A DNA stretch of 60,537 nucleotides from Escherichia coli (lineage in GTDB: Bacteria; Pseudomonadota; Gammaproteobacteria; Enterobacterales; Enterobacteriaceae), in NCBI RefSeq assembly GCF_003334255.1, contig NZ_QOWU01000027.1; one strand, written 5' to 3'. Positions 6,372 to 38,775 of the stretch are shown here, in pieces. Numbering within the stretch: position 1 is the first letter of the stretch; every line of letters begins with the position of its first letter. The notes beneath the pieces were generated by a model that did not search any database, was not told the DNA's origin, and saw only the letters and a program-made list of their open reading frames with translations. The position numbers and the translations under genes are program-made.

Positions 6372-6540
6372 TATACTCTAAATAATTCAAATTGGTCCGA
6401 TCCGGCGCAACGTCCCAATGGCCTGGATTATAAATCTCATTATCTTAATTGCAACGGGGTCCAGCCGTGGTTATAATTCGTTCGTTGGAACACGATGTTG
6501 CACAGGCTGTGGTGTTAGGCCTGAAAATAGTAAATAAAAG

Positions 6541-6572
6541 AACCTGCCTCACCAGCAGGTTTTTTTATTTAC
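6541..6572 (+). terminator. Rho-independent terminator (hairpin ACCTGC-CTCACCA-GCAGGT followed by T7)
   Basis: Perfect 6-bp GC-rich stem, 7-nt loop, then TTTTTTTATTT on the + strand, about 170 bp downstream of the yehK stop. Confidence 0.8.
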
Positions 6573-6677: not shown

Positions 6678-7766
6678 ATGTCACCGCAGAATAATCATCT
6701 GCAGCGTCCGCCTGCTGCTGTGTTATACGCCGATGAACTGGCAAAATTAAAACAAAATGATAACGCACCTTGCCCGCCCGGTTGGCAGTTAAGTTTGCCT
6801 GCGGCCCGTGCTTTTATCCTTGGCGACGAAGCGCAAAATATCAGCCGTAAAGTGGTGATTAGCCCCTCCGCTGTCGAACGTATGTTAGTCACTCTTGCTA
6901 CCGGCCGCGGTTTGATGTTGGTGGGGGAACCGGGTACCGCAAAATCTCTTCTTTCTGAATTACTGGCAACCGCTATTAGCGGCGATGCCGGGTTAACCAT
7001 CCAGGGCGGGGCATCTACCACCGAAGATCAAATCAAGTATGGCTGGAACTACGCCCTGCTTATCAATCATGGTCCGTCAACGGAAGCGCTGGTCCCTGCC
7101 CCGCTTTATCAGGGAATGCGCGACGGCAAAATCGTCCGTTTCGAAGAGATAACGCGTACACCGCTGGAAGTGCAGGACTGTCTGTTAGGTATGCTTTCTG
7201 ACAGGGTGATGACGGTGCCGGAACTCACTGGTGAAGCCAGTCAGCTCTATGCGCGAGAAGGCTTTAATATTATTGCCACTGCCAATACCCGCGATCGCGG
7301 CGTCAATGAAATGAGTGCTGCGCTAAAGCGTCGCTTCGATTTTGAAACGGTTTTTCCGATTATGGATTTCGCCCAGGAGTTGGAACTGGTCGCCAGTGCT
7401 TCGGCGCGTTTGCTGGCCCATAGCGGTATTCCGCATAAAGTGCCTGACGCGGTACTGGAATTACTGGTCCGCACCTTCCGCGATCTGCGTGCCAACGGCG
7501 AAAAGAAAACGTCAATGGATACACTGACAGCGATTATGTCCACCGCTGAAGCCGTGAACGTGGCCCATGCTGTGGGCGTCCGCGCCTGGTTTTTAGCGAA
7601 TCGCGCGGGGGAGCCTGCCGACCTGGTGGAATGTATTGCCGGAACCATCGTCAAAGATAACGAAGAAGATCGCGCGCGTCTGCGCCGTTACTTCGAACAG
7701 CGTGTCGCCACACATAAAGAAGCTCACTGGCAGGCTTATTATCAAGCCCGCCACCGCCTGCCGTGA
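6678..7766 (+). CDS. yehL: YehL, MoxR/AAA_5-type AAA+ ATPase (362 aa)
   Basis: ORF track 6612..7766; start placed at ATG 6678 (MSPQNNH) to give the 362-aa length. Walker A GEPGTAKS at ~6925-6948; Walker B-like VRFEEITR; stop TGA at 7764-7766. Confidence 0.9.
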   Translation: MSPQNNHLQRPPAAVLYADELAKLKQNDNAPCPPGWQLSLPAARAFILGDEAQNISRKVVISPSAVERMLVTLATGRGLMLVGEPGTAKSLLSELLATAISGDAGLTIQGGASTTEDQIKYGWNYALLINHGPSTEALVPAPLYQGMRDGKIVRFEEITRTPLEVQDCLLGMLSDRVMTVPELTGEASQLYAREGFNIIATANTRDRGVNEMSAALKRRFDFETVFPIMDFAQELELVASASARLLAHSGIPHKVPDAVLELLVRTFRDLRANGEKKTSMDTLTAIMSTAEAVNVAHAVGVRAWFLANRAGEPADLVECIAGTIVKDNEEDRARLRRYFEQRVATHKEAHWQAYYQARHRLP

Positions 7767-16948: not shown

Positions 16949-17680
16949 ATGGCGCTTTACACAATTGGTGAAGTGGCGTTGCTTTGTGATATTAATCCTG
17001 TCACGTTACGCGCGTGGCAGAGGCGTTACGGATTGCTGAAACCGCAACGGACAGACGGCGGTCATCGGCTGTTCAACGATGCCGATATTGACCGGATCCG
17101 CGAGATCAAACGCTGGATCGACAACGGCGTGCAGGTCAGCAAAGTTAAAATGCTGCTCAGTAATGAAAATGTTGATGTGCAGAACGGCTGGCGCGATCAG
17201 CAAGAAACATTACTGACTTACCTGCAAAGCGGCAATCTACATAGCCTGCGAACGTGGATCAAAGAGCGCGGTCAGGATTACCCCGCCCAGACACTCACCA
17301 CACATCTGTTTATTCCTCTGCGCCGACGGCTTCAGTGCCAACAACCGACTCTCCAGGCGCTGCTGGCGATCCTCGACGGCGTACTGATCAACTACATCGC
17401 CATTTGTCTGGCTTCGGCACGTAAAAAACAGGGTAAAGATGCGCTGGTGGTTGGCTGGAATATTCAGGATACCACCCGTCTGTGGCTGGAGGGCTGGATT
17501 GCCAGTCAACAAGGATGGCGCATTGATGTCCTCGCCCACTCGCTCAATCAACTACGCCCTGAACTATTCGAAGGCCGTACATTGCTGGTGTGGTGCGGTG
17601 AAAATCGAACCTCCGCCCAACAGCAGCAACTCACCAGTTGGCAAGAACAAGGCCATGATATTTTCCCACTCGGCATTTAA
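16949..17680 (+). CDS. mlrA: MlrA, MerR-family transcriptional regulator (243 aa)
   Basis: ORF 16949..17680; N-terminal MerR HTH (YTIGEVALLCDINPVTLRAWQRRYGLL). Confidence 0.92.
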   Translation: MALYTIGEVALLCDINPVTLRAWQRRYGLLKPQRTDGGHRLFNDADIDRIREIKRWIDNGVQVSKVKMLLSNENVDVQNGWRDQQETLLTYLQSGNLHSLRTWIKERGQDYPAQTLTTHLFIPLRRRLQCQQPTLQALLAILDGVLINYIAICLASARKKQGKDALVVGWNIQDTTRLWLEGWIASQQGWRIDVLAHSLNQLRPELFEGRTLLVWCGENRTSAQQQQLTSWQEQGHDIFPLGI

Positions 17681-17739
17681 TGATTCGTTAACAAATGCGC
17701 TTTACTGTACAATCCTTTCGTTAACATAAGGAGTGCATT

Positions 17740-17847
17740 ATGCGCATAGCTAAAATTGGGGTCATCGCCCTGTTCCTGTTTATGGCGTTAGGCGGAATTG
17801 GTGGCGTCATGCTCGCAGGTTATACCTTTATTTTGCGTGCTGGCTAA
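17740..17847 (+). CDS. yohO: YohO, small single-helix membrane protein (35 aa)
   Basis: Absent from the ORF track (too short). Manual translation gives [35 protein letters not shown], with AAGGAG SD 7 nt upstream and TAA at 17845-17847. Confidence 0.8.
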
Positions 17848-18559
17848 GCGCCTGCACCAGCCTTTCAAACAGGCGGTCTGCGATGATCGCCGCCAGTGCC
17901 ACCAGTAACGCCCCCTGGATCACATACGCGGTATTAAATCCGCTAAGCCCGATGATGATGGGCGTACCCAGCGTGCTGGCCCCTACCGTTGAGGCGATCG
18001 TCGCCGTACCAATGTTGATAATCACCGAAGTTCGCACGCCCGCCAGAATCACCGGAGCCGCCAGCGGTAGCTCGACCTTACGCAGTCGCTGACCACGACT
18101 CATTCCCATACCTTTCGCAACTTCTGTCACGCTGGCATCAATCGCTCCCAGCCCGGCAAGTGTCGCCTGCAGGACGGGCAGCACACCGTAAAGGATCAAG
18201 GCGATAATCGCTGGTTGCAGACCAAAGCCGATCACCGGAACGGCGATCGCCAGCACTGCGACGGGCGGAAAAGTCTGTCCAACGGCGGCAATAGTTTCCA
18301 CCAGTGGGCGAAATTCCGCGCCCCACGGGCGAGTGACAGCAATTCCGGCACCAGTGCCAATGATCACCGCAAACAAACTCGAAATTCCCACCAGCCAGAA
18401 ATGAGCCAGTGCCAGAGCTGCAAAACTTTCTTGCTGATAAACGGGTCGTGGCAGTTGTGGGAACAAGGCAGCAAACAGCGGCTGGCTGTAAGGCAGCCAG
18501 AAAATCAGCGCCACAAACAGAGCAATGAGCCAGAACAGCGGATCGCGCAACATCTTCAT
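17828..18559 (-). CDS. yehW: YehW, ABC transporter permease of the osmF-yehYXW osmoprotectant system (243 aa)
   Basis: ORF 17828..18559 (-); multi-pass membrane protein. Its 3' end overlaps the yohO 3' end by 20 nt. Confidence 0.92.
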
Positions 18560-18563
18560 ACGC

Positions 18564-19490
18564 TTACGCCTCCTCCAGCAGATCCTGAAAATGCAGCGTG
18601 CCGCAAGGCTGGCCCTGCGTGTTCATCACCGGCAGCACCTCGCATCCCCGCGCGACAAACAGGGAGAGCGCATCGCGTAGCGTCATCTCTTCTGCCAGTG
18701 CCTCACCTTCTGCCCGTTCTTCGCGACGCACGTAATCCGCCACACTACGTAACGAAAGCAGGCGCACCCCCAGTTCACTACGTCCAAAAAACTGGCGGAC
18801 AAAATCATTCGCCGGACGAGTCAGCATCGTCAGCGGATTGCCCTGCTGCACTACTTCACCGTGATCCATCAATACCAGATGTTCTGCCAGCCGTAGCGCC
18901 TCATCAATATCATGAGTGACCAGCACAATGGTACGCCCCAGCAAACGGTGAATGCGCGTCATCTCTTGTTGCAACGCGCCGCGCGTTACCGGGTCCAGTG
19001 CGCCAAAAGGTTCATCCATCAGTAAGACTTGCGGATCGGCAGCCAGTGCACGCGCCACTCCCACACGTTGCTGCTGACCACCGGAAAGCTGATGCGGATA
19101 ACGCTCACGCAAATTTGACTCCAGCCCCAGTAGCGCCATTAATTCGTCGATACGATCGTCAATCCGTGCCCGCGACCATTTTTGTAATTGCGGCACGGTA
19201 GCGATGTTTTGCGCCACGCTCCAGTGGGGGAACAGGCCAATAGATTGAATGGCATAGCCCATCCGGCGGCGCAACTCCAGTACTGGCAGCGAGCGAATTT
19301 CTTCTCCGGCAAAGCGGATCTCTCCGCTGTCATGCTCCACCAGGCGGTTAATCATTTTCAGGGTGGTGGATTTGCCGGAGCCAGATGTGCCAATCAGCAC
19401 CGAAAAACTCCCTTCCTGAAAATTGAGATTGAGATCGTTAACGGCTTTTTGTGCGCCGAACAGTTTGCTGACATGGCTAAATTCAATCAT
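18564..19490 (-). CDS. yehX: YehX, ABC transporter ATP-binding protein (308 aa)
   Basis: ORF 18564..19490 (-); Walker [13 protein letters not shown] signature LSGGQQQRV, Walker B LLMDEP. Confidence 0.93.
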
Positions 19491-20640
19491 TACGTTTCAC
19501 CTTCAGCAGTGCGATAAGCAAATCGAACAGCGCGTCGGTAAGCACCGCCAGAACAATTACCGGGATCACCCCCAGCAACACTAAATCAATGGCGCTGCTT
19601 AGCAGCCCCTGGAAAACCAGCGCACCAAAACCGCCTGCGCCGATTAACGCCGCAATCACCGCCATACCTACAGTTTGCACCATCACCACCCGCAGGCTGC
19701 GCAGAAATACCGGTAACGCCAGTGGTAACTGAACATGCAGGAATCGCTGCGCCCCGCTCATGCCCATCGCTCTGGCGCTCTCCAGCACATCGCGCGGGAT
19801 CTGGTTCAAACCGACTACCACGCCGCGCACCAGCGGCAGCAAGGCATAGAGCACCAGCGCAATCAGTGCGGGTGTCATTCCGGTTCCTGCTATGCCGAGC
19901 GTCCCCAGCCACGGAAAGGCCGTAACCAGCGCGGCAAGCGGCGCAATCAACAGGCCAAAGAGCGCCACCGAAGGCACGGTCTGAATCACATTGAGCAGAG
20001 AAAAAATTGCCCCCTGCCGAGCAGTGGAAAAGTAGCACCAGATGCCCAACGGCACACCAATCACTAACGCAGGCAGCACCGCACCAAACAGCAACGTCAG
20101 ATGTTGTGCCAGCGCGTCGTCAAACACATCCTGACGGTTGGCGTATTCTTTCATTAGTGAGAGATCGTTAAGCGTGCCGGAGTACAGCAACCACAGCGGA
20201 ATAATGGCAATCTGCATATGCAACAACCAGCGCCACAGCGGATGCGTGGAGATTCGGCGGATGGCATCGCTACAGGCCAGCAATGCCAGCGCCGCAGCCA
20301 GCCAGAAACCACTGCCGAGGCTGGTACGCGCCAGCGCACTGCCATTTTGCGCCAGTTGGGTCGCCGCCTTTCCAGCTCCCCACACCAGCAATACGAAGAC
20401 GAATTGCGCCAGAATGAGTGCACAAATGCTGCCTTTTTTACCGGGAATAAAACAGGCCGTCAGCCAGGCGCAACCAACGCCCACCAGCATCCAGATCGTT
20501 TGCGGCCACAGCTGCCAGAGATGACGCCCCTCACCCGAAACTAAACGATTAGGCGCGTAACTGATAAACGGCAGCGCCGCTGCGATTGCCGTCAGCAACA
20601 GCAGCAGCGCCAGAACAGGATTAATACGGAAATAAGTCAC
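19483..20640 (-). CDS. yehY: YehY, ABC transporter permease (385 aa)
   Basis: ORF 19483..20640 (-); hydrophobic multi-pass protein; overlaps the yehX start by 8 nt. Confidence 0.92.
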
Positions 20641-20646
20641 GGGAAA

Positions 20647-21564
20647 TTACTTCGTCCACCCTTTTTGTTTCAGGTAGTCGGCAGCCACTTTTTTGGCATC
20701 CAGTCCTTCCACAGCAATGCTGGCATTCAGTTGCTGCAATGTTTTTGCATCGAGGCTGGCGAAGACTGGCTGTAGCCACTGTGCCATTTGCGGATACTCC
20801 CTCAACACCGACTCACGCACCACTGGTGCAGGCGCGTAGATAGGTTGCACACCTTGCGGATCGCTTAAGGTTTGCAGCCCCAGCGCCGCTACCGGGCCGT
20901 CAGTGCCGTAAGCCATTGCAGCATTAACGCCAGAGGTTTGCTGGGCAGCGGCTTTGATCGTCACCGCCGTGTCGCCACCAGCCAGTGACAGCAACTGATC
21001 CTGACCGAGCTTAAAGCCATAGGCTTTTTCAAACGCGGGTAACGCATCGGCGCGTTCGATAAACTCTGCCGAGGCTGCCAGTTTGAAGGTGCCGCCCTCT
21101 TGCAGATAACGACCCAGGTCGGCAAGCGAAGTGAGTTTATTTTTCTCTGCCACATCCTGACGCACGGCGATAGTCCAGGTGTTATTTGCAGGCGCGGGCG
21201 TCAGCCAGATTAACTTGTTGTGCTCCGAATCGAGCTTTTTGACTTTCTCGTAACCTTGCTGCGCGTTTTTCCACGCTGCATCGTTTTCATCTTTAAAGAA
21301 GAAAGCGCCATTGCCGGTATATTCCGGATAGATATCCAGTTCACCGGAAGTAATCGCCCCGCGCACCACAGGAGTCGTTCCGAGTTGCACTTTATTCACC
21401 GTCGGTACGCCGTGGCTTTCCAGCACCTGCAAAATGATATTGCCGAGTAGCGCACCTTCGGTATCGATTTTTGAACCGACTTTAACGGGGGAAGCCGCCT
21501 GTAGCGGCAGGCTCACGGCTGCCAACATAACCAGTGAACCTGCCCAGAGCTTTAAGAGTGGCAT
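20647..21564 (-). CDS. osmF: OsmF (YehZ), periplasmic glycine betaine/osmoprotectant-binding protein (305 aa)
   Basis: ORF 20647..21564 (-); N-terminal signal peptide; first gene of the four-gene transporter operon. Confidence 0.92.
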   Translation of the reverse strand: MPLLKLWAGSLVMLAAVSLPLQAASPVKVGSKIDTEGALLGNIILQVLESHGVPTVNKVQLGTTPVVRGAITSGELDIYPEYTGNGAFFFKDENDAAWKNAQQGYEKVKKLDSEHNKLIWLTPAPANNTWTIAVRQDVAEKNKLTSLADLGRYLQEGGTFKLAASAEFIERADALPAFEKAYGFKLGQDQLLSLAGGDTAVTIKAAAQQTSGVNAAMAYGTDGPVAALGLQTLSDPQGVQPIYAPAPVVRESVLREYPQMAQWLQPVFASLDAKTLQQLNASIAVEGLDAKKVAADYLKQKGWTK

Positions 21565-21699
21565 GATGCTTTCCTCATTCTTTTACTGTTGTTTTCAGCG
21601 AATTAAGAGAAAAGCATAGTTGATAATGGCGGGGTTAGCTTGAGCGGAAGGATTCAGTTGCAGAATCAGATAAATACTTAAGAGGCATATTCGGTCCGG

Positions 21700-21770
21700 C
21701 GTTTCCTGCCGGATGCGGCGCGAGCGCCTTATCCGGCCTACAAAGGGCGCAAACGTCGCGCCCTTACTAA
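21700..21770. repeat. REP (repetitive extragenic palindromic) element
   Basis: GCCGGATGCGGCG...GCCTTATCCGGCCTACAAA consensus-like palindrome between osmF and bglX. Confidence 0.85.
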
Positions 21771-26953: not shown

Positions 26954-27126
26954 GATGAGCATTCAGATAGTGGTTCACGCGCACGGGTTGCGCACCGCCG
27001 GAGTAAGGATTTACTGAGGCTAGCGACGCCATCATAACGAGCAAAAAGTGCGATCGTCAAAGGAGAATCGTGAGGAAATGCTGCATTGCTGACATTTACG
27101 CCAGCAATGCAACGTCAAAGAACTTT

Positions 27127-29405: not shown

Positions 29406-30842
29406 TCAGCGTTTGTAACCCCCGCCCAACGCACCAGTGAGTTGAATGGAGGCATCCAGCCACTGCCCTTGCAATAACAGGCCATTGGCCCGCTCACGCA
29501 GCGCGGGGATTCTGGCTTCGCTGACGCGGGAACCAGCAATGATGCCCGCGTTAAAGCGCGCCTGCGCAAGACCTACCACACGCAAGGCATCGCGCTCAAT
29601 TTGCGCCTGATGCTGGTTTTTCTCCGCCAGTGTCTGAACCTGACTGGCTGCCCGCGCCACGTCATTCACCGCTTCAACCACCGCTTTGTTGTAGCTGGCG
29701 ATAGACAAGTTGCTTTCGGCTTTTGCGATATCGAGATTGGCGTTAAGACGACCACTATCGAAAATGGGTAGCGTCAGGCCTGCCGTAACGCCCATTTGCT
29801 GCGCGGAATGACGGAACAGATCGCTTAAGTGCAACGCATCCTGTTGCAGGAAGGCCATCAGGTTGATGTCAGGATAAAATGCCGCTTTTGCCGCATCAAT
29901 GGTGCTTAGCGATGACTCAACGTACCAGTGCGCCGCCTGCAAATCTGCCCGCCGGGCCAGTAAGGAGTACCCCAGTTCATCAGGAAGCTGGCTTGCCACT
30001 TTCGGCAACGCGACCGGTTTAAGCTTCAATGACTTTGTCTGGTTATTTGTAAGTGCGCTTAACCGTGCCTCAATAATTTTCATTTTCCCCGCGACATCGT
30101 TGAGCTGCTGCCGGGTTTTGCTGGCATTAATATCGGTTTCCACACCTTCAACTGAAGAAGTAATCCCGTTCTGATATAGCTGGCGATCGGTCGCGATAAT
30201 GGTGTTCTGCTCTTTTTCTATTTGCTGCAAGACCGTGTTTAACGCCGCCTGGGTTTGCCACTCCCAGTACAGGCGGGCTACGCTGCCAGCCAGCAATTGG
30301 CGGGTTTGCTCGCGTTCCGCCGCCCGTGCTTTAACCGTACCCAGGCGGGCAGTAACCTCCGCCCGATTCTTTCCCCAGATATCGAGATGCCAGCCCGCCG
30401 TTAAGCCAAAAGTACCGTTGGTGTACCACGGGCCGGTCGTACCTGCGGCCGGATCGTTCAGAGCAAACGGCCCCATTAAGCCTTCTGCCGACATTTTTTG
30501 CCGCTCCATATCCGCCGAAAAGTCGATCTGCGGACCATCCTGAGTGGCAACTGCCTTCGCCTGGGCTTCAGCTAGCTGAATGCGCTGTTCAGCCACCTGC
30601 ATATCCGGTGCGTTCTGTAGTGCATTGTTAATTAAGGAAGTGAGTTGATTATCGTGATACTCCAGCCACCATTGGCTGTCTGGCCAACCATTTTTCAGCG
30701 CCGTGGGTAATGCGGTGTCAACTTGTGCAGCGGGCGTTTGCTGGCTTAACGCCTGGCGGGTTTCATGCATAGGCGCACACCCGGCCAGCATCAGTAACAG
30801 CGGAAAACAGGCGATGGCTGGATAAAAGGAATCACGATTCAT
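29406..30842 (-). CDS. mdtQ: MdtQ, OprM/TolC-type outer-membrane efflux lipoprotein; reads as an intact 478-aa frame here
   Basis: ORF track 29406..30932 (-) is one uninterrupted frame; start trimmed to ATG 30842 (MNRDSFYPAIACFPLLLMLAGC, lipobox). Confidence 0.85.
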   Translation of the reverse strand: MNRDSFYPAIACFPLLLMLAGCAPMHETRQALSQQTPAAQVDTALPTALKNGWPDSQWWLEYHDNQLTSLINNALQNAPDMQVAEQRIQLAEAQAKAVATQDGPQIDFSADMERQKMSAEGLMGPFALNDPAAGTTGPWYTNGTFGLTAGWHLDIWGKNRAEVTARLGTVKARAAEREQTRQLLAGSVARLYWEWQTQAALNTVLQQIEKEQNTIIATDRQLYQNGITSSVEGVETDINASKTRQQLNDVAGKMKIIEARLSALTNNQTKSLKLKPVALPKVASQLPDELGYSLLARRADLQAAHWYVESSLSTIDAAKAAFYPDINLMAFLQQDALHLSDLFRHSAQQMGVTAGLTLPIFDSGRLNANLDIAKAESNLSIASYNKAVVEAVNDVARAASQVQTLAEKNQHQAQIERDALRVVGLAQARFNAGIIAGSRVSEARIPALRERANGLLLQGQWLDASIQLTGALGGGYKR

Positions 30843-31065
30843 GGGGGAATAATCAGGTAAGAAAAGGTGCGCGGAGATTACCGTGTGTTGCGATATATTT
30901 TTTAGTTTCGCGTGGCAATACATCAGTGGCAATAAAACGACATATCCAGAAAAATATACACTAAGTGAATGATATCTTCCGATTTATCTTAATCGTTTAT
31001 GGATAACGGCAAAGGGCTTCGTTTTTTCCTATACTTATTCAGCACTCACAAATAAAGGAACGCCA

Positions 31066-31149
31066 ATGAAAATTATACTCTGGGCTGTATTGATTATTTT
31101 CCTGATTGGGCTACTGGTGGTGACTGGCGTATTTAAGATGATATTTTAA
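31066..31149 (+). CDS. yohP: YohP, small membrane protein (27 aa)
   Basis: Not in the ORF track. Manual translation gives MKIILWAVLIIFLIGLLVVTGVFKMIF, with AAGGAA SD upstream and TAA at 31147-31149. Confidence 0.8.
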   Translation: MKIILWAVLIIFLIGLLVVTGVFKMIF

Positions 31150-31249
31150 AATTAATTAATGTCATCAGGTCCGAAAATAACGAGAATATTTCAGTCTCTC
31201 ATCCTGTTGCGCTCCTGTCATGTGCATTGCTTCATATAATCACTGGCGC

Positions 31250-31420
31250 AAGGAGCGCGCAGGGGGCGGCCAATCGCCGCCGCCCCCTGCACCCCCGGGC
31301 TCTGGCGAACAAAATCGCCGCTGCGCGGTGCCCTCGGCTTATCCCTTACGGCTACCGGGTCGGGCGCGAGGTAACATCCCTGTAAAACGCGCCCTCAGCC
31401 CACATCCATGTGGGCTGCCC
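31250..31420. other. GC-rich noncoding element with two perfect palindromes
   Basis: Hairpin 1 at 31260..31289 (CAGGGGGCGGC-CAATCGCC-GCCGCCCCCTG, 11-bp stem). Hairpin 2 at 31396..31417 (CAGCCCACAT-CC-ATGTGGGCTG, 10-bp stem). Lies between yohP and the dusC 3' end. Confidence 0.5.
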
Positions 31421-38591: not shown

Positions 38592-38775
38592 GACGCATCC
38601 GGCATTTGGTTCCTGTCGCCGGATGCGGCTTGAACGCCTTATCCGGCCTACAAAACCATACAAATCAGTATGTTGAGCTTATTGTAGGCCGGATAAAACG
38701 CGCCAGCGTTGCATCCGGCATTTGGCTCCTGTTGCCGGATGCGGCGTGAACGCCTTATCCGGCCTACAAAACCAC
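38592..38775. repeat. BIME cluster (several REP units in alternating orientation)
   Basis: Repeated GCCGGATGCGGC(T/G)TGAACGCCTTATCCGGCCTACAAAACC units and inverted copies between preA and mglC. Confidence 0.88.

Follow-up and report, generated by a model that had tools for sequence, protein, structure and literature searches.

Two known small membrane protein genes, yohO and yohP, in an Escherichia coli contig, and the conserved 3' coding overlap of yohO with the transporter gene yehW

Two very short open reading frames in the window, a stretch of 60,537 nucleotides from Escherichia coli (assembly GCF_003334255.1, contig NZ_QOWU01000027.1), were identified as the known E. coli genes yohO (b4542) and yohP (b4679), each encoding a translated inner-membrane protein with a single helix; the probability of this reading was put at about 0.92, and no finding contradicted the gene identities. 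The initial annotation had proposed two real small genes, of 35 and 27 aa, that the ORF track had missed, and this was confirmed by the ORFs themselves, by identity with K-12 and by scores above the cut-offs of the corresponding NCBIfam models. Both genes lie below the 60-aa default of the ordinary ORF list, which is why they were absent from the size-filtered track. That such a cut-off hides genuine, annotated small-protein genes is a known limitation and carries little weight as the result of a scan. The genes, their products and the idea that yohO and yehW form an excludon are already annotated or published, and there was nothing new in the earlier interpretation. The additions made here are modest, namely that the interlock of yohO with yehW was family-wide and occurred in several genomic contexts, and that promoter elements were conserved. 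The positions of all features are given in Table 1.

Table 1. Features of the yohO and yohP regions, and other elements of the window mentioned in the text.
Feature	Position	Strand	Description
Candidate operator palindrome	17677..17691		AT-rich, TTAATG-N3-CATTAA; precedes the yohO -10; in E. coli the right arm reads CGTTAA and the element spans the stop codon of mlrA
Candidate yohO -10 hexamer	17708..17713	+	TACAAT here, TATAAT in the majority of genera; the yohO ATG follows after about 27 nt
yohO Shine-Dalgarno	17727..17733	+	TAAGGAG; 6-nt spacer to the ATG
yohO CDS	17740..17847	+	ATG ORF, 35 aa; UPF0387 family; single-pass small membrane protein
yohO/yehW coding overlap, 3' to 3'	17828..17847		20 nt exactly
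yehW	17828..18559	-	243-codon ORF; convergent to yohO; closes the osmF-yehYXW operon for a glycine betaine ABC transporter
mdtQ	29406-30932	-	intact 508-codon ORF; TTG start in the mechanical ORF list
Candidate yohP -10 element	31029..31035	+	C-TATACT (C at -13 plus TATACT); about 30 nt upstream
yohP Shine-Dalgarno	31055..31059	+	AAGGA; 6-nt spacer to the ATG
yohP CDS	31066..31149	+	ATG ORF, 27 aa, MKIILWAVLIIFLIGLLVVTGVFKMIF; single-pass small membrane protein
REP-like GC-rich repeats	31240-31300		downstream of yohP
OrzO-P antitoxin sRNA	6491-6566	+	Rfam, 99.9 bits; indicates a zor-orz type I toxin-antitoxin locus
Peptidase-S11 RNA motif	26958-27038	-	Rfam, 72.8 bits; in the pbpG leader region
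naRNA4 (CssrE)	38687-38764	-	Rfam, 88.3 bits; nucleoid-associated non-coding RNA

The coding sequence, Shine-Dalgarno sequence and promoter of yohO were 100% identical at the nucleotide level to those of K-12 b4542 (YP_588460.1, labelled "UPF0387 family protein YohO"), and no difference was found in the protein, in the neighbours (mlrA upstream and yehW convergent) or in the 20-nt overlap. Of the 5426 complete E. coli genomes, 5424 carried the yohO region (95–100% identity), with the annotation mlrA, yohO, yehW and yehX, and ATCC 8739 was among those that matched the window at 100% across it. RefSeq annotates both yohO and yohP in K-12 MG1655 and in ATCC 8739, and a public protein collection holds the exact sequences of both products under those names. 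YohO scored 80.1 bits against the NCBIfam equivalog NF010225 (cut-off 57), with residues 1–35 placed on profile positions 1–35 of 35. YohO showed the characters of the UPF0387 family: this full-length match, a length near 35 aa with a single hydrophobic helix and a conserved core, and the overlap with a convergent yehW. A Pfam-A scan of YohO returned no significant family (best B12D, E = 0.39), and precomputed annotation of YohO orthologues gives the newer Pfam family PF27791 (UPF0387_membrane). A HMMER search of 1.84 billion representative proteins recovered relatives in 17 clusters only, most of which were frameshifted or mis-called variants of yohO; the YohO family is narrow.

The yohP gene was also 100% identical to its K-12 counterpart, b4679 (YP_002791249.1, "putative membrane protein YohP"), in nucleotide sequence, upstream region included, and in protein sequence, and it occupied the same place between mdtQ and dusC, although mdtQ is a pseudogene in K-12 and intact in the window. 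The window therefore derives from an E. coli other than K-12. YohP scored 67.3 bits against the NCBIfam equivalog NF011345 (cut-off 58), with residues 1–27 on profile positions 1–27 of 27, and it had the form and position of the members of that family, a single helix of 27 aa between lysines encoded between mdtQ and dusC. The two lysines, K2 and K24, were invariant in 35 orthologous sequences. In complete E. coli genomes the region is annotated as mdtQ and yohP. An 801-nt query around yohP gave a median of 4 matches per E. coli genome, and several of the top matches carried an IS1 insertion in the intergenic region. A GC-rich hairpin was present 3' of the yohP stop codon in most genera.

The good Shine-Dalgarno sequences and single hydrophobic helices that had been claimed for the two genes were both borne out. 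A Shine-Dalgarno-like core preceded the start codon in 55/55 loci orthologous to yohO, with an alignment consensus of aAGGAG, and in 37/37 loci orthologous to yohP. The GRAVY index was 1.58 for YohO and 2.47 for YohP, and the best 19-residue Kyte-Doolittle windows reached 2.41 and 2.96, respectively.

Published work on YohP, a model among small membrane proteins, has established that SRP recognizes the protein post-translationally, that SecYEG or YidC serves for its insertion, and that it is integral to the membrane, mainly in the N-out/C-in orientation, and forms a dimer through the single glycine in its helix (PMC7549839). [quoted passage not shown] When YohP is produced, membrane potential and fluidity fall, cardiolipin rises, and Psp proteins and (p)ppGpp are induced, and cells that lack it survive stress less well (PMC12719787); the term "metabolic silencing" has been published for it. 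Nucleoid condensation caused by YohP has also been reported (PMC12542507). YohO, on which less has been published, was found by top-down proteomics (PMC12529367) and also by tagging and Ribo-seq; in Shigella, yohO mRNA was lower under anaerobiosis (PMC4229854). The absence of a translation signal had been named as grounds for rejecting the genes; Ribo-seq and top-down mass spectrometry for YohO, and western blot and functional evidence for YohP, speak in favor of the genes on this point. In the published account as a whole, YohP is inserted post-translationally via SRP and SecYEG/YidC, forms a glycine-mediated dimer, and accumulates in stationary phase and when nutrients or oxygen are limiting. 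It partly depolarizes the membrane, which sets off the phage-shock and stringent responses and leads to a protective state of low metabolism.

Conservation was analyzed in 80 Enterobacteriaceae loci, one genome per species, anchored on dld, which lies between yohO and yohP, with 10-kb flanks. A full-length yohO orthologue of 34–37 codons, starting with ATG in all cases, was present in 55 of the 80 loci, and a yohP orthologue in 37, of which 36 had 27 codons. In five Kosakonia/Phytobacter loci (L065, L067, L069, L071 and L077), a TTG aligned with the E. coli yohP start and an ATG stood one codon upstream; judging from this alignment, YohP in these loci is probably 28 aa long (MLKILLW...). The annotated frame was open in 55/55 distinct yohO and 35/35 distinct yohP orthologous sequences, and for yohO no alternative frame was open throughout all 55. 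For yohP, one antisense frame (31066–31146) was also stop-free in 35/35 distinct orthologues. This frame was rejected as a gene, as neither a start codon nor an ORF of at least 20 aa exists there in the window; its openness probably follows from the invariant hydrophobic codons, which constrain the opposite strand.

Substitutions in both genes were concentrated at third codon positions, with 11, 1 and 24 variable columns at codon positions 1, 2 and 3 of yohP. The pN/pS ratio of yohP was 0.047 and residues 11–27 of the protein were invariant. For yohO, the ratio was 0.19 in the 35-codon subset, 0.24 over codons 1–28, none of which is shared with yehW, and 0.10 over codons 14–28; residues G19, G22, V23, M24, L25, G27, Y28 and I31 of YohO were invariant in 56 sequences. 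Both yohO and yohP are under purifying selection in Enterobacteriaceae, and the small ORFs, for which a lack of conservation would have spoken against their being genes, were intact across the species of the family.

The overlap of 20 nt between the 3' ends of yohO and yehW had been described in the initial annotation and was found exactly as described. Orthologues of yehW in the species loci were defined by an identity of at least 72%, and in a separate YehW homologue search the relatives among the matches listed all had at least 78% identity. Each of the 54 loci that had a yehW orthologue also had yohO, and the overlap measured 17, 20, 23 or 26 nt, in one relative frame. Where a yehW orthologue was missing near dld, yohO was absent too, with the sole exception of locus L004 (Escherichia sp. 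MOD1-EC7003, 7034-7474). Here a deletion equivalent to window positions 17912–21740 had taken out yehX, yehY, osmF and the greater part of yehW. An intact yohO and an 84-nt stub of yehW were kept, and about 268 nt at the junction had no match. The gene on the other side of yohO was less constant. In six loci mlrA was absent, and the divergent btsS lay 220–300 nt away from yohO. Two divergent orthologue groups (L083–L088) had as upstream neighbour either metG or an ArsR-type regulator, or else a TonB-dependent receptor, and yohO still shared 20 nt with the final permease gene of an operon of the order OpuAC-permease-ATPase-permease. Thus yohO co-travels with yehW, and not with mlrA. The conserved interlock suggests, at the level of gene order and sequence, a functional tie of YohO to OsmF-YehYXW, although the universal linkage could also reflect the mere difficulty of separating two overlapping coding sequences.

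Upstream of yohO, a block gTAtAaT was conserved in the alignment of 54 upstream regions, including those of loci without mlrA, and was also found in the divergent-context loci. Together with a GTTAACA block and AAGGAG, it made up the conserved set of this region. In E. coli, the sequence TGTACAAT in the -10 region was considered as a possible MlrA half-site. It was rejected as such and treated as a -10 box, because most genera have TATAAT in its place and it is also found in loci that lack mlrA. Consensus promoter and terminator scans gave nothing above shuffled expectation at yohO or yohP; the yohO -10 was missed by the consensus scan because its -35 is poor, and the conserved -10 boxes of both genes came from the cross-species alignments. 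On the strength of these conserved motifs only, yohO appears to have its own conserved promoter and to form an independent transcription unit. The palindrome that precedes the -10 box (alignment consensus TTAAtg.TT.aTTAACA) was present in most genera. It was kept where mlrA was absent and in L086–L088, was not found in L083–L085, and its spacing to the -10 box differed in some Citrobacter; it may be an operator for some regulator. Upstream of yohP, the conserved block was CTA.aCTt across genera, and the C-TATACT of the window is a candidate -10 of the sigma-S type. This reading is consistent with the published induction in stationary phase and under nutrient limitation, for which the sigma factor was not named (PMC12719787).

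The interlock raises the possibility that YohO belongs to OsmF-YehYXW as a small subunit dedicated to this transporter, with an accessory or regulatory role, and would bind YehW or YehY through a glycine-zipper helix in the manner of KdpF, AcrZ and MgtS. Co-localization with yehW was strict in 54/54 species and across four different upstream contexts, one face of the YohO helix was nearly invariant and rich in glycine, and a family confined to 17 representative clusters among 1.84 billion proteins would suit a partner of this kind. The pairs KdpF/KdpABC, AcrZ/AcrB and MgtS/MgtA resemble the case of YohO in that a protein of about 30–50 aa with one transmembrane helix is encoded by a gene linked to, or co-regulated with, that of a transporter (PMC12719787); yohO, however, is convergent to the transporter operon and not inside it, and the likeness is drawn from genomic linkage only. 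In contrast to kdpF, yohO is not co-transcribed with the transporter genes and is read towards them from its own putative promoter. The linkage itself may be a mechanical consequence of the overlap, and a literature search returned no paper proposing a functional link between YohO and OsmF-YehYXW. Retention of yohO after loss of the transporter in L004 also stands against a dedicated subunit, but this deletion is recent and says little for or against a tie between YohO and the transporter. On balance, a dedicated subunit seems rather unlikely.

A second alternative places the function of yohO mainly at the RNA level. Mutual antisense read-through with yehW would make the expression of yohO and of osmF-yehYXW exclusive, as in an excludon, and the peptide would be secondary. 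No terminator-like fold was found across the yohO/yehW junction on either strand by consensus scan and RNA folding, and none was detectable between or within the two gene ends; RNA folds of the overlap region were no more stable than those of shuffled sequences (z = -0.9 and -0.2 for the two strands). Since no terminator fits between yohO and yehW, the two mRNAs must have complementary 3' ends, and because the coding sequences overlap, overlap of the transcripts is unavoidable whenever both genes are expressed. As the coding overlap was universal in the 54 loci with a yehW orthologue, this geometry favors a role for the RNA. Indeed, yohO-yehW is among the 165 convergent excludons of MG1655, each observed by RNA-seq in at least 50% of 58 transcriptomes (PMC12288877). 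The pair is thus itself an entry of that catalogue, convergent and with obligatory transcript overlap, and it differs from other convergent excludons in that even the coding sequences overlap and that this overlap is conserved family-wide. The hallmark of excludons is reciprocal regulation, whereas yohO-yehW is known by transcript overlap, and what the catalogue documents is overlap, not interference or reciprocal expression (PMC12288877). A literature search returned no data on RNase III-dependent processing of yohO-yehW or on expression of the two genes in mutual exclusion. The possible transcriptional interference that had been suggested at the outset is a reasonable idea, of which the catalogue supports the overlapping transcripts. 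Against a mainly RNA-level role, purifying selection was strongest in codons 14–28 of yohO, which lie outside the overlap (pN/pS 0.10), which argues that the peptide itself is selected, and the YohO protein has been detected (PMC12529367). A role of the RNA and a role of the peptide can coexist, but an RNA function that relegates the peptide to second place is unlikely.

YohP, and perhaps YohO, might instead be a membrane peptide similar to type I toxins, serving growth arrest under the control of an antisense RNA. YohP is small, with a single helix between lysines, and it causes depolarization and nucleoid condensation when produced; a parallel with TisB-type toxins was drawn by the authors of the YohP study (PMC12719787). 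Like YohP, TisB has a short helix, lowers membrane potential and promotes a dormant-like state. The published effect of YohP, however, is non-lethal, and its loss reduces survival of stress (PMC12719787), so that YohP differs from TisB in being protective at native levels, and also in having no known antisense antitoxin and no Rfam antitoxin match at its locus. An Rfam scan of the window at the gathering threshold, which covers described RNA families only, placed no antitoxin, sRNA or other family over yohO or yohP, while OrzO-P was detected elsewhere in the window; the same scan also yielded naRNA4 and the Peptidase-S11 motif (Table 1). The antisense RNA antitoxin that defines type I systems was seen at neither gene by Rfam or by promoter scan; the search for an antisense ORF or a promoter signal above chance was likewise negative. 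A toxin-like role under antisense control is consequently regarded as improbable.

That the reading frames of yohO and yohP are open by chance, in DNA that is intergenic or belongs to a 3' end, and are never translated might be argued from their very short length, from about ten other ORFs of at least 20 aa in each neighborhood and from the lack of a significant Pfam-A match for YohO, yet this is refuted, to a practically negligible probability, by the published detection of both proteins and the conservation data, in which the annotated frame stayed intact in all orthologues over many genera (for yohO, with no other frame doing so), with third-position bias, low pN/pS, conserved Shine-Dalgarno motifs and start codons, and scores above the cut-offs of curated HMMs.

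The best reading therefore remains that of two known genes for translated single-helix inner-membrane proteins, to which a tentative extension is added for YohO. The almost invariant, glycine-rich face of its helix (G19, G22-V-M-L, G27-Y28) would pack against a membrane partner, for which the permeases of the transporter, YehW and YehY, are the most obvious and most economical candidates, and the complementarity of the yohO and yehW mRNAs at their 3' ends would allow mutual antisense damping of the excludon type. That YohO acts by such packing of its glycine face, with the co-inherited YehW/YehY as the most economical partner, is considered doubtful. That reciprocal antisense damping between yohO and yehW is a significant function is held to be distinctly unlikely. 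Taken together as a module, in which YohO would be part of the OsmF-YehYXW betaine transporter through binding of a permease via the glycine face, through reciprocal control at the mRNA 3' ends, or through both, the idea is put forward as a tentative possibility. If true, it would explain why the overlap and an independent promoter were kept in every lineage and context examined. The interlock with yehW thereby offers a cheap and concrete hypothesis for YohO, as a partner or an antisense regulator of OsmF-YehYXW.
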